In this document: positions 33,649-63,565 of the stretch, one piece after another
Layout of the letters: each line of letters begins with the position of its first letter
How positions within the stretch are numbered: the first letter of the stretch is position 1
NCBI GenBank assembly: GCA_964491265.1
Contig: CAZBFP010000002.1
Location: 134,288 to 198,287, forward strand
Origin: an uncultured Leptospirales bacterium
GTDB taxonomy: Bacteria; Spirochaetota; UBA4802; UBA5550
Direction of reading: 5' to 3'
Length of the DNA stretch: 64,000 bases
Made by a program: the position numbers and the translations under genes
Notes under the pieces: model-generated
What the model was told of the DNA's origin: nothing
Seen by the model: only the letters and a program-made list of their open reading frames with translations
Databases searched by the model: none

Positions 33649-33792
33649 TATTTCTATGATTATAAAATAAGTTCAGATTTAAGTCAGTAAATGTTATGAA
33701 TTGTTTTGTCAAGCAAGAGGAGAAATATCTGAATATCCTTCAAGTCCCCTGAAAATGGACTTGAAGGGGTAGCTGTATAATTTTTTGGGTGT

Positions 33793-33879
33793 TGTCATTC
33801 CCGCGTAGGCGGGAATCTCATAACTTCTGATTTTAACAGGAGATTCCCGCACTACGTTGTCACTTCGGCTGGAATGACA
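33793..33879. mobile_element. Miniature 87-bp palindromic element (family 2), copy 1
   Basis: TGTCATTCCCGCGTAGGCGGGAATCTCATAA...GAGATTCCCGCACTACG...GGAATGACA. Terminal 9-bp inverted repeat TGTCATTCC/GGAATGACA plus internal hairpins. About 85% identical to 63351-63437. Confidence 0.7.
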
Positions 33880-33927
33880 GGCTTTCTTTAAAAAATTTTA
33901 CTGTTATTCTCGAAGGGCGTTATGTAA

Positions 33928-51402: not shown

Positions 51403-52857
51403 ATGAATAAAAGACCTTTTCAATCTATTATTATCAGAGCATTCATTATCTGTATACTCTTAAATGCTTTACCTGCAGCAGCAGGGACAGCTGCTGTTTA
51501 CCCGGCCTATACGGGTAATCCGGTATTGGACCATATTCTCAGTTCTGCTGAGTATAAATTAAATGAAATGTTCCATAAATCGGGGCGATATTATCCTGCA
51601 GATTATCACAGTAAAAAAGCCTCCCTTGAAAAAGCCGCTGGTGAAAACAGTGAAATCTTTTATAAAAATGCCGCGCGATTAATTCATGCTGATCTTGCTG
51701 TAATGCTGAGTATCGATTCTCAAAGGGGTGTTTTTGCATTAAAAATGACCTGCATTGCTTTTACATCTGCCGGAGAAAAAACCTTGTTCGATTCACTTAT
51801 TACTTCATCAATACCTGACAATATCCCCCTTAAGGGTGTGCTCCGGTTTTCTCATTTTTTTAATGACCTTAAACTGGAAGCAGAGGTGATCCGCATAGAT
51901 GATACCGGGGGGAGGGTGATTGATGCGGGGCAGTGGAACAGCCTTGAAGCAGGGGAGTATAAAACCTCGGCTGGAATCGTAAATGTAACAGAGCTTTCCA
52001 GGTATAATTCTCTACTTGAAGGATCAGATTTATCTGAAGGGGAGAGTATTATTTTTGATATTTATCCCGATTTGACAGATTATTTCAGGGAAACAGAGAG
52101 GGTGATTAAGCGGAATATTGTAAGGAAATATGGAACAGATGAAGTTCTAAACAGTAAGGAGGGTGCGGCAAAGGAGATGGTATATGGAACCTGCATTATA
52201 AATCCGGGGGCCAACCTTTTTCTCCCCGGATACGGTTCTTTCCTCTCTGTTGAATATATGGGGATAGAAAAAAGTACCCCGGATCGTACAGGGATGATCA
52301 TTGCCACAGCTATTATTGCAGGACACTTTATGCTCCCCGGCATGTTGACCGGTTTTAAAACAAATTTTTTCCCCTGGGTTAAAGACAGCGATAAAACTTC
52401 AGAAATGCAGAGGCTTCATATTTTTCTCTGGGCATCACTCCCTCTTACCTACTCGGCATCATTCTACAATCAGCTTGCATGGCAGTATCACAGCAAAGAT
52501 CTCCTCCCACCGCTTTTTATTGATAGTGATAATACAGCAGCTGTGATATCACTTTTTGTTCCAGGGGGCGGGCTTTTTTATAAAGGGCAGAGAGGGGCGG
52601 GTTTTGCTTTCTATGCTGCGGAAATGTCACTCCTCGGTTACGGGATATATACCGGTGAGAGTGAAAAACGCAGGGCTGCTTTTATCGGATTGGCAGCAGT
52701 AAAGGTTATTGATATTGCTGCCGCATATTTTGTTCCACCAGGTTACAGGGTCTTCAGGGATGAAATTTCCGGTTCCGCGCCATCATTCTCCATGGGGATA
52801 CTCCCCGGAATTGAAGGTGACGGGGAATTTACATTTTCAGTTACACAATCTTTCTAA
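51403..52857 (+). CDS. Hypothetical secreted/membrane protein
   Basis: Signal peptide and C-terminal hydrophobic segments. 484 aa, no known domain. Confidence 0.45.
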   Translation: MNKRPFQSIIIRAFIICILLNALPAAAGTAAVYPAYTGNPVLDHILSSAEYKLNEMFHKSGRYYPADYHSKKASLEKAAGENSEIFYKNAARLIHADLAVMLSIDSQRGVFALKMTCIAFTSAGEKTLFDSLITSSIPDNIPLKGVLRFSHFFNDLKLEAEVIRIDDTGGRVIDAGQWNSLEAGEYKTSAGIVNVTELSRYNSLLEGSDLSEGESIIFDIYPDLTDYFRETERVIKRNIVRKYGTDEVLNSKEGAAKEMVYGTCIINPGANLFLPGYGSFLSVEYMGIEKSTPDRTGMIIATAIIAGHFMLPGMLTGFKTNFFPWVKDSDKTSEMQRLHIFLWASLPLTYSASFYNQLAWQYHSKDLLPPLFIDSDNTAAVISLFVPGGGLFYKGQRGAGFAFYAAEMSLLGYGIYTGESEKRRAAFIGLAAVKVIDIAAAYFVPPGYRVFRDEISGSAPSFSMGILPGIEGDGEFTFSVTQSF

Positions 52858-52935
52858 CTTTTTTTTTATTAATACAGGAATGGCGGGGAAAATGATAATA
52901 TAAATTCTTCGTCACCCGACATTATCATCATATAT

Positions 52936-53321
52936 TGTCATTCCTGCGAATGCAGGAATCTTATACTATAGTTTTATATAAATCATCCCATTCAGGATTC
53001 ATTTCATTTATCACATTGTCTTTGAAGTCCCTTTTCCATTTTTTCATCTGCTTTTCTTTTATAATTGCACTTTCAATATTTTGAGTTTCAATAAACCAGA
53101 CAAGTTTACTGCAATTATATTTTGAACTAAAACCCTCAATTAGCTTATTTTTATGTTCATATACACGTCTTAAAAGATTATTGGTTATACCAATGTAAAG
53201 CACTGTGTTATACTTATTTGTCATTATATAAACATAGTATTTATTCATTAGATAATATCAATTCCATAGAATTTGATTTATGAGATTCCGGCACTTCGTA
53301 TTCACTTCGGCCGGAATGACA
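52936..53321. mobile_element. Family-2 palindromic element carrying a GIY-YIG nuclease gene in its loop (putative autonomous copy)
   Basis: The 5' end TGTCATTCCTGCGAATGCAGGAATCTTATAC and 3' end ATGAGATTCCGGCACTTCGTATTCACTTCGGCCGGAATGACA are collinear with the 87-bp copies at 33793 and 63351. The 288-bp ORF replaces the central loop. Confidence 0.7.
52961..53248 (-). CDS. Small GIY-YIG nuclease family protein (UPF0213/YhbQ-like)
   Basis: 95 aa. YYVYIMTNKYNTVLYIGITNNLLRRVYEH is the GIY-YIG motif block. Confidence 0.75.
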   Translation of the reverse strand: MNKYYVYIMTNKYNTVLYIGITNNLLRRVYEHKNKLIEGFSSKYNCSKLVWFIETQNIESAIIKEKQMKKWKRDFKDNVINEMNPEWDDLYKTIV

Positions 53322-53326
53322 GGACA

Positions 53327-54430
53327 TTACACAATCTTTTTAACTTTTTTTCTTGAGAAAAAGAAGAAGGCTAAAAATAAAACATAAGAGGCGATTGCCG
53401 GTATTACTGCAGCAGGGTAGAATTTCGCAATTGGCGCAAGAAGGAGTATAACAAACCAGTGATAGTAGATCGCCTTACCTGTGTTAAGTGCAATAGGGAA
53501 ATCGTTCCATCTTATTATCACCATCATACCTGTAAGATTCCAGCCGTATAACGAATAAAAGGCGTGCATCCTTAATATTACCTTCCCGTAGTATTCATAA
53601 AAAGCGAATTTAGTAAGTACAATATATATTATTCCAGTGACCGCTGAGATTAAAAGAAAGTACATCCCTGATACAAGGAAATGCTTCTGCTGTATACGTG
53701 TGCCGAATCTGAAAAAAAAGAAGAATATAAGTAATACAGTGATGAAGAGGAGTGCGGATATTATGACTTCGCCGATAAAAACTTGAAAAATAATAAAAAG
53801 AAAGAATACTATAACACCTCCGCATATGAGCCAGAAAAAGATATGCTCTGCAATATATATAAGGGAGGATTTCTTCTCTTCAATTATTCCGAAAATTATA
53901 GACATGGTGATGAGTGATACAGGGAACGAAAAACCGAGAAAAAAGACATTTAACGTAAGTTTTTCGAAATGGAAAAGGTTAAAGTGTACTTCGTTTAATA
54001 TAACAAAGGATGATAGGAGCAGGGCGATTGAGAGACAGAGGAGCGAGGCCTGATGAAATTTTTCTGAAGCGCTCCATTTTGCCCTGAAAAAACTGTAAGG
54101 GAAAAATGGAAATTTTTTAATACGGTACGATTCCACAATAAATGCAAGCACTACAGCAATAGCTGCTGCAGGGTAGTAAATTTCAAAAAATGCCAGCATG
54201 GCGTATATAATGCTCAGGAAAAAGAATATTAATGTTTTAAACGACGGTACGCTTCTCCCCTCAGTAAGATAAAGGATTGTAAATCCGCCGCTTGTAAGGT
54301 TGAAAAGGAATATATGGAGCCTTTCAAAGTTTTTATCCATATATATGTCCAGGTATCCAAACATGAATGCCAGGGACATTGTGGTAAAAAGCAGGTATCT
54401 TGAAAGGTATCTTATATTCATTGTAAATAT
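53327..54430 (-). CDS. Polytopic membrane protein, unknown function
   Basis: About 10 TM segments. The ORF-track start at 54505 (MPPLGDRGK) is a read-through of the MITE inverted repeat. The likely start is MIFTMNIRY at about 54430. Confidence 0.5.
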   Translation of the reverse strand: MFTMNIRYLSRYLLFTTMSLAFMFGYLDIYMDKNFERLHIFLFNLTSGGFTILYLTEGRSVPSFKTLIFFFLSIIYAMLAFFEIYYPAAAIAVVLAFIVESYRIKKFPFFPYSFFRAKWSASEKFHQASLLCLSIALLLSSFVILNEVHFNLFHFEKLTLNVFFLGFSFPVSLITMSIIFGIIEEKKSSLIYIAEHIFFWLICGGVIVFFLFIIFQVFIGEVIISALLFITVLLIFFFFFRFGTRIQQKHFLVSGMYFLLISAVTGIIYIVLTKFAFYEYYGKVILRMHAFYSLYGWNLTGMMVIIRWNDFPIALNTGKAIYYHWFVILLLAPIAKFYPAAVIPAIASYVLFLAFFFFSRKKVKKIV

Positions 54431-54480
54431 CATTCTTTCCGGATTATCGGGGGATAAAAGCAGATCTTTACAAATCCTTT

Positions 54481-54683
54481 TCCCCCTGTCCCCCAAAGGG
54501 GGCACGAGTTAATATATTTTTACTCTGATAATTTAATTTTTTATCATTCCTATAACAACTTCAATATTGTTTAATACATCTTCATCTTTAATATGTAATA
54601 TTTGGATTCTAATACTTTGAGAAAATTCATCTACTTACACAAGTATTCTTTTTACCTGCCCCCTTTGGGGGACAGGGGGCAGA
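54481..54683. mobile_element. MITE-like element, family 1 (about 203 bp)
   Basis: TIRs TCCCCCTGTCCCCCAAAGGGGGCACGAG (left) and CTGCCCCCTTTGGGGGACAGGGGGCAG (right). The core is similar to the 56622-56819 copy. Confidence 0.65.
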
Positions 54684-54703
54684 CTCCGGAAAATTCAGGA
54701 GCA

Positions 54704-63299: not shown

Positions 63300-63350
63300 T
63301 ACATTTACCTGAAAGTTATTTTTTTAATATCAGTATAAATTTGTGGGTGG

Positions 63351-63437
63351 TGTCATTCCCGCGCATGCGGGAATCTCATAATTTCTGATTTTTTCATGAG
63401 ATTCCCGCATTCCGTTTTCGCTCCAGCCGGAATGACA
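63351..63437. mobile_element. Miniature 87-bp palindromic element (family 2), copy 2
   Basis: TGTCATTCCCGCGCATGCGGGAATCTCATAA...CATGAGATTCCCGCATTCCG...CAGCCGGAATGACA. Same length and about 85% identical to 33793-33879. Confidence 0.7.
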
Positions 63438-63565
63438 ATAAATGTGTATACAACCCGAAAATAAACTGTTACTATCTTTTAGAATATCATTAATAAGTTT
63501 TTTATTCTTGAAAATGACAACTATTTTTTTAAATATGTCATTTTACGTGATATTATCAAAAAAAA

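Follow-up and report, generated by a model that had tools for sequence, protein, structure and literature searches.

A 386-bp segment at positions 52936-53321 of a 64,000-nt stretch of DNA from an uncultured Leptospirales bacterium (GenBank assembly GCA_964491265.1, contig CAZBFP010000002.1, positions 134,288 to 198,287; the whole stretch is hereafter called the window) is very probably a spirochaete member of the published Ssn/SRM system, in which a small gene, ssn, for a GIY-YIG nuclease lies between hairpins called Ssn-related motifs (SRMs). The initial annotation of this DNA had taken the segment for an undescribed element, a claim that does not hold because the pairing of gene and hairpin is already published (Ssn/SRM, PMC11893778; the hairpins, PMC3733652). 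To what PMC11893778 reports, our analysis adds filled and empty insertion sites, a duplication of 25 nt of the target, evidence that the unit is young, deletion derivatives, and the packaging of these derivatives in miniature inverted-repeat transposable elements (MITEs).

SsnA is a 94-aa single-domain GIY-YIG protein that binds the Neisseria NTS hairpin CGTCATTCCCGCGMAVGCGGGAATCYRG (Chenal et al. 2025, PMC11893778). It binds single-stranded DNA only, and only one of the strands, and cuts 3 nt upstream of the motif; three further Ssn homologs act likewise on their own motifs, and RNA is not a substrate of the characterised Ssn enzymes (PMC11893778). In the same study a motif was found near 71% of the ssn homologs and on both sides in 42%, the genes usually carry SRMs on their flanks, and the arrangement NTS-ssnA-NTS was likened by the authors to an insertion sequence. 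NTS-bearing DNA transforms Neisseria less in the presence of SsnA, and restriction of incoming single-stranded DNA was proposed (PMC11893778). The second relevant group comprises the CGTC-tagged repetitive extragenic palindromes (REPs), in which the tag may also read TGTC and an 8-bp stem starting with AT encloses a 4-nt loop; the repeats often form dimers (Di Nocera et al. 2013, PMC3733652). They are equivalent to dRS3 of Neisseria and RPE-6 of Rickettsia, are present in Spirochaetes, and "lack a dedicated transposase" (PMC3733652).

The ssn gene of the window (52961-53248, minus strand) codes for a GIY-YIG nuclease of the Ssn family with 95 aa and a single domain. Its product matches the Pfam GIY-YIG family at residues 3-76 with E 1.6e-15, and the only other Pfam domain is the overlapping T5orf172 model. 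As the Neisseria comparison protein we used the 94-aa N. gonorrhoeae SsnA ortholog (L155:589-873; L-numbers denote loci or contigs compared with the window), not the N. meningitidis entry CAX49033.1. In this ortholog Y6, Y17, and E64 occupy the published positions exactly, and NTS repeats lie on either side of its gene. The two proteins share 47% identity in a gapless BLASTP alignment over 90 of the 95 residues (93 bits), and a tblastn search of 7.3 Gb reached the Neisseria ortholog with E 2e-21. The window protein is thus a homolog in the sense of PMC11893778 (E < 1e-10 with at least 75% coverage). Its Y7, Y18, and E65 are aligned with the published catalytic Y6, Y17, and E64 of SsnA, and among 23 homologs E65 is invariant and Y7 and Y18 are nearly so. 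The YhbQ-like label that had been attached to the protein was imprecise, and we rejected that subfamily, since the window protein is only 24% identical to E. coli YhbQ (UPF0213) with 26.6 bits, against 93 bits to SsnA. A PDB sequence search gave nothing at E of 0.01 or below, an NCBIfam scan gave sub-threshold matches only (a group I intron endonuclease model at 17 bits against a cut-off of 56), and a homolog search with the protein of locus L051 returned no named Neisseria protein among the best 120 of at least 8000 matches. The record that holds the gonococcal ortholog (NZ_CP119140.1) is entered in PLSDB as a 2.17-Mb "plasmid" and is a Neisseria gonorrhoeae chromosome; the ssnA ortholog is unannotated there.

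Both flanks of ssn carry a hairpin of the SRM type. A short-loop SRM (52936-52963, plus strand) adjoins the 3' end of the gene and consists of a TGTC tag, an 8-bp stem ATTCCTGC/GCAGGAAT, a 4-nt loop and the tail CTTA; the final three bases of this 28-nt motif (52961-52963) are the stop codon of ssn. A long-loop SRM (53279-53321, minus strand) lies upstream of the gene, with a TGTC tag, the stem ATTCCGGC/GCCGGAAT, a 17-nt loop and the tail CTCAT. The leader between this hairpin and the ssn start (53249-53278, minus strand) is homologous over its first ~17 nt to the spacer of two gene-less miniature copies of 87 bp located at 33793-33879 and 63351-63437. The two SRMs stand 0 and 33 nt from the open reading frame (ORF), well inside the 500 bp within which the published work scored motifs on both sides. 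The window contains exactly three copies of the short hairpin arm GTCATTCCNGCGNNNGCNGGAATC, on the plus strand at 33794, 52937, and 63352, and shuffled sequence contains none. Its partner arm GAGATTCCNGCA...GGAATGACA, which reads on the minus strand as the same tagged hairpin with a 17-nt loop, recurs without mismatch at 33840, 53282, and 63398. All three units thus combine a short-loop with a long-loop hairpin in inverted orientation, their TGTC tags pointing outward. The arms beside the gene agree with the miniature at 33793 in 23 of 28 positions on the left and 35 of 40 on the right. The NTS consensus CGTCATTCCCGCGMAVGCGGGAATCYRG is matched in 21 of 28 positions by the 52936-52963 motif and in 24 of 28 by the miniature copies. 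The miniature short arm (TGTC, ATTCCCGC, GTAG, GCGGGAAT, CTC) fits the definition of CGTC-REP family 1 (PMC3733652), except that its tail is not CCA. On these points the initial annotation was borne out: it had placed the 95-aa gene between two conserved hairpin arms shared with the copies at 33793 and 63351, with the stop codon in the left arm and the start 33 bp from the right one, and had noted a compensatory change in the stem. Among 38 distinct copies, mostly from the source metagenome, the varying stem position is C-G in 22, T-A in 16 and mismatched in none; the two stem variants form two subfamilies, and the change could be one single event.

The link between gene and hairpin is not confined to this locus. 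With a strict detector, which accepts a forward tagged hairpin up to 130 nt upstream or a reverse one up to 90 nt downstream, we examined 81 homologous genes at 80 loci in more than 15 phyla (49-64% identical), with shuffled flanks as the control. A forward hairpin was found upstream of 42% of the genes, a reverse one downstream of 31%, and both at 27%, against less than 1% in the shuffles. Between loci the stem sequence is highly variable, and the tag and the pairing are kept. A one-off coincidence of gene and termini can thus be set aside, and chance juxtaposition was rejected both on the motif counts in the window and on this association.

As judged from alignments with relatives, the ssn unit is a derived insertion between two convergent, originally overlapping genes and is accompanied by a 25-nt target duplication. 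The left copy of the duplication (52841-52865, plus strand, TTACACAATCTTTCTAACTTTTTTT) holds the stop codon of a 484-aa gene, and the right copy (53327-53351, plus strand) carries on the minus strand the end of a 392-aa gene, namely its last codons and its stop (KKIV*). This direct repeat, TTACACAATCTTT[C/T]TAACTTTTTTT, has only these two copies in the window, identical at 24 of 25 positions. Inside the insert, an AT-rich 70-nt spacer (52866-52935) separates the left copy from the short-loop SRM; it is unique to the locus, with no further copy in 530 kb apart from the orthologous locus, and it has diverged from L092 to a degree similar to the flanks. On the other side, the 5-nt junction GGACA (53322-53326) separates the tag of the long arm from the right copy. 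The site is filled in the window, L091, L092, L097, L100, and L143. In the relative L096 it is empty: a single target copy (L096:2591-2615) lies where the convergent genes overlap by 17 nt, and neither ssn nor a hairpin is present. The outgroups L098 and L099, whose neighbour protein is 42-43% identical, likewise have overlapping genes and no insert. Because both L096 and the outgroups are empty, the empty site is the ancestral state. The comparison of empty and filled sites that had been proposed for this element recovered both states.

The distance from the long-arm tag to the target copy is always 5 nt in relatives (GGAGA, GGAAA, GGATA), and that from the short-arm tag to the target copy is 3 nt in L091, L097, and L143. 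By analogy with the characterised Ssn enzymes, these distances would about match the cut position. Tandem arrays occupy the target in some relatives, as miniature-full in L091 and L097 and as miniature-full-miniature in L143. In the L143 array (L143:150-1000), both miniatures share one internal deletion that keeps the last ~18 ssn codons. L093 retains the duplication and the long arm, with ssn replaced by a different palindrome-bounded segment: at L093:4520-4725 an inverted pair of the palindrome GCCCCCTGTCCCCCAAAGGGGGC bounds ~200 nt in place of ssn and the short arm. The same palindromic repeat occurs in the window at 54657-54684 and looks like a second small mobile element family. The neighbour genes (51403-52857 and 53327-54505) are convergent and match no Pfam family, and their 3' ends overlap by 15-29 nt wherever the site is empty (L096, L098, L099). 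The 392-aa ORF call is ~28 codons longer than the 364-365-aa calls in relatives and is probably over-extended from a GTG start. Long direct repeats around ssn are common in other phyla, where most are tandem SRM arrays; non-SRM repeats were seen only in the Flavobacteriaceae loci L080 (31 nt) and L078 (80 nt), where they flank the ssn units and recall the 25-nt duplication of the window.

At synonymous sites the ssn unit appears much younger than its neighbours, though it occupies the same site in several diverged lineages. The proportion of four-fold-degenerate sites that differ between the window and L092 or L091/L097 is 0.15-0.24 in ssn, counted over 20-21 ssn sites per comparison, against 0.55-0.68 in the two flanking genes (Fisher p = 0.002 and 6e-5). 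A plateau of nucleotide identity, at 82-95%, is confined to 52921-53360. The GC content of ssn is 25% versus 41% for the window, and homologs with 78%, 69%, and 68% identity lie at three unrelated loci in other Spirochaetota. Low divergence, the plateau, the deviant GC content and homologs at other loci together indicate that the unit has moved or been exchanged, preferring this target, rather than simply been inherited vertically. We infer that the ssn module acts, or acted until recently, as a selfish mobile cassette with a site preference.

The short gene-less copies tell a related story with a different footprint. We scanned metagenome contigs with the exact pattern of the 40-nt long arm and obtained 55 exact matches, mostly in the source sample, among them 45 pairs of 85-87 bp, a single 113-bp intermediate and a single instance of the full element; the long arm was not found in viral contigs. 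The 38 distinct dimer sites, also mostly in the source sample, extend beyond the 87-bp core into outer inverted repeats (GGTAGCAGTATAATTTTGTGGGTAA on the left, AAACTTTCCCCCTAAAATTCTACTACTACC on the right), with conservation reaching ~25 nt past the left end of the core and ~30 nt past its right end. These repeats are conserved in 36 copies and bring the total length to about 141 bp. Exact 7-9-bp direct repeats abut them in 19 of the 36 copies, against 0.3 expected from mismatched controls. By structure the short copies are classical MITEs, with 25-30-bp terminal inverted repeats, 8-9-bp target duplications, a length below 300 bp and no ORF. The first copy in the window (33768-33909, plus strand, ~141 bp) consists of the left inverted repeat GGTAGCTGTATAATTTTTTGGGTGT, the SRM pair at 33793-33879 and the right inverted repeat; it is flanked by the imperfect duplication TTGAAGG/TCGAAGG and aligns with consensus positions 1-134 of 140. 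The second (about 63326-63476, plus strand) surrounds the SRM pair at 63351-63437 with more diverged outer repeats (L117).

Within the MITE core, the spacer shows homology to both the ssn leader and the 3' end of the gene. Deletion intermediates with the last codons of ssn retained occur independently in L091/L097/L118 and in L143. In sequence, the MITE cores are therefore ssn-deleted derivatives. The earlier description of the 87-bp copies as miniature elements was accordingly right as to their derivation from the gene-bearing form; it was incomplete as to their extent, since the true ends lie in the outer inverted repeats. The ssn unit in the window has none of these repeats, and around ssn units at 22 loci from other phyla they are absent in most. 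The dispersal footprint of the MITEs belongs to the inverted repeats and does not point to the window copy of ssn.

Several copies carry further insertions. At L091:2900-2955, L097:5025-5080, L131 from 11743, and L153 from 3555, the loop of the long hairpin contains a ~56-nt palindromic insert (core GCAGCCACGATGGCTGC), found both in one lineage's ssn unit and in MITE copies elsewhere; the L153 version is shorter. An ~88-nt segment interrupts an ssn unit (L097:5113-5205) and a MITE (L153:3337-3430) precisely at the tag, so that a copy of TGTCAT stands at either end of it, and the hairpin tags appear to be insertion hot spots. In the MITE copy at L133 from 7915, the short-arm loop has grown from 4 to ~27 nt.

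How would such a cassette work? By analogy with the four tested enzymes, each SRM would fold into a hairpin when the DNA is single-stranded, and Ssn would bind it in a sequence- and strand-specific manner and nick a few nucleotides 5' of the tag. The nicks predicted on this basis fall just outside each end of the module, one per strand. Such cutting may define the ends of the unit and contribute to its spread, and the nuclease may also act on every other SRM of the genome. The 87-bp pairs are SRM pairs that lost ssn by internal deletion and were dispersed as the core of the ~141-bp MITE, whose inverted repeats and target duplications point to a transposase recognising these repeats or to a form of the element that had them. 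In its fullest version, the SRM-ssn-SRM cassette would be an active mobile element of a new mechanistic class, with ends set by single-stranded DNA nicks 3-5 nt outside the hairpins, site-preferring insertion, long duplications (25 nt here, 31 nt at the Lacinutrix locus) and MITEs spread in trans. We put this forward tentatively and consider it rather unlikely as a whole.

A number of points weigh against the main reading of the locus as an inserted Ssn/SRM module. The cut positions assigned to the window protein are extrapolated from the Neisseria and Wolbachia enzymes, and the low synonymous divergence rests on just 20-21 ssn sites in each comparison. Transposition seldom leaves a duplication as long as 25 nt; selection keeping both overlapping gene ends could favour such a length, and recombination could also produce it. 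Unequal crossing-over can explain the L097 and L143 arrays as well as repeated insertion can. The published degenerate SRM string has no match in the window: the mismatch is at the last position only, and the 17-nt loop of the long arm also exceeds the limit of the string, which, when shortened by its last two positions, finds the two miniature short arms only. As for the MITEs, the search for an autonomous partner covered 530 kb and revealed no element bounded by their inverted repeats (GGTAGCAGT...-type). In two related lineages (L163-L167), whose Ssn is 68-69% identical, a sequence resembling the left inverted repeat of the MITE stands immediately before the upstream SRM of ssn, on one side only (about 1429-1453 in L163-L166; L167:1108-1180 and 1549-1622). 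A gene-bearing form with MITE inverted repeats may therefore exist, which would shift the balance toward the model of the initial annotation discussed below. In L167, the left-repeat-like block occurs as a direct repeat on both sides of ssn.

The best-surviving alternative is that Ssn and the dispersed SRMs form a domesticated host function with no present mobility, serving single-stranded DNA restriction or control of recombination as proposed for Neisseria transformation, and that the fixed position of ssn reflects vertical inheritance. The unit holds the same syntenic position in the window, L091, L092, and L097, all 23 contigs with the identical protein have it at one locus, and SsnA of Neisseria does lower transformation by NTS-carrying DNA (PMC11893778). 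However, the synonymous divergence of ssn far below that of its neighbours and its deviant GC content speak against simple vertical descent, as do the empty site of L096, the replacement of ssn in L093 and the homologs at other loci. We regard this reading as a serious contender that is nevertheless improbable on balance; domestication and past mobility are not mutually exclusive.

The initial annotation had proposed instead that the gene-bearing unit is autonomous and the short copies are its MITE-like derivatives; spelled out, this model has Ssn as the sole mobility enzyme and the MITEs moved in trans by Ssn. In its favour, there is one ssn copy against at least 38 gene-less copies with both arms and the spacer, deletion intermediates are present, and the junctions of the insert fall 3-5 nt 5' of the tags, near the Ssn cut position. 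The left-repeat-like sequence abutting the SRM in L163-L167 points the same way, as does the lack of a dedicated transposase for the CGTC REPs (PMC3733652); no other transposase with the MITE inverted repeats was seen either, although that search spanned just 530 kb. On the other hand, the MITE ends with their 8-9-bp duplications lie 25-30 nt outside the predicted Ssn cut sites, and the window locus has another footprint and no MITE inverted repeats. In addition, GIY-YIG nucleases are DNA hydrolases with no known strand-joining activity, and an SRM pair would receive only one nick per strand. What stands of the proposal of an autonomous element with MITEs is the insertion itself and the deletion intermediates; it is not supported for the window copy of ssn, which lacks the MITE repeats and is flanked by 25 nt rather than 8-9 bp. 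In the form proposed, we find the model doubtful.

A structured RNA (a terminator, riboregulator or mRNA-stabilising REP) to which the nuclease gene is merely adjacent is very improbable: the 93-nt copies do fold well (z -5.6 to -7.5) and a hairpin abuts the ssn stop codon, but both strands fold equally, as expected of a DNA palindrome, a scan of the whole window at Rfam gathering thresholds found no family, no T-tract terminator was found, and tag and stem are conserved across phyla together with a cognate protein that binds single-stranded DNA, not RNA. The initial annotation had not specified in which of the two nucleic acids, RNA or DNA, the structure would form. The promoter and terminator scan gave nothing above chance and no promoter-like site in the leader. 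A tRNA-linked island was rejected, as the window contains no tRNA or tmRNA.

Among known systems, the Ssn/SRM units of Neisseria (PMC11893778) are the closest, with a ~94-aa single-domain GIY-YIG protein, a nearly identical tagged hairpin, their own motifs on the flanks and many further copies. The present unit differs in its Spirochaetota host, the TGTC tag, the tail CTCA/CTTA and one 17-nt loop, and further in that the extra copies are inverted heterodimers inside MITEs and that filled and empty sites with a 25-nt duplication are found. The CGTC-REPs (dRS3 of Neisseria, RPE-6 and RPE-4 of Rickettsia; PMC3733652) share the CGTC/TGTC tag, the 8-bp stem starting with AT, the 4-nt loop, the short tail and frequent dimers, whereas PMC3733652 found no dedicated enzyme for them, the partner here and in PMC11893778 being Ssn, and their tail is CCA instead of CTC or CTT. 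REP/RAYT systems (REPtrons) and IS200/IS605 elements also place one small nuclease gene between inverted hairpins recognised as single-stranded DNA and have many gene-less copies. However, their enzyme is a Y1 HUH transposase with a covalent intermediate and not a GIY-YIG hydrolase, and they make no target duplication, in contrast to the 25 nt here; membership in either type was rejected because the sole ORF of the unit encodes the GIY-YIG protein and no Y1 HUH transposase is present. The free-standing GIY-YIG homing endonucleases (I-TevI, Seg proteins) resemble the unit as small nuclease genes that are present or absent at a conserved intergenic site and younger than their flanks. Unlike the unit here, they have a separate DNA-binding domain and cut double-stranded DNA, and their spread is by gene conversion and involves neither hairpin termini nor duplications; a GIY-YIG homing endonuclease was rejected since the protein has 95 aa and one domain, without a separate DNA-binding domain. 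E. coli YhbQ is likewise a GIY-YIG protein, of ~100 aa, and belongs to another subfamily. The short copies recall Correia-type MITEs, which are likewise ~140 bp long, intergenic and without an ORF and have terminal inverted repeats, target duplications and tens of copies, but here the core is an SRM pair and the duplications are 8-9 bp instead of TA.

The pairing of a tiny single-stranded DNA nuclease with a hairpin repeat was recognisable from raw sequence alone, and the results bear on a question left by PMC11893778, namely whether ssn units move. If Ssn does not drive movement, the locus is one more Ssn/SRM module. If it does, this would explain the multiplication of CGTC-type repeats in Neisseria, Rickettsia, and Wolbachia; the CGTC-type REPs, dRS3 and the RPE repeats would gain a long-missing mobility enzyme, and a nuclease class would be added to the toolkits of transposition.

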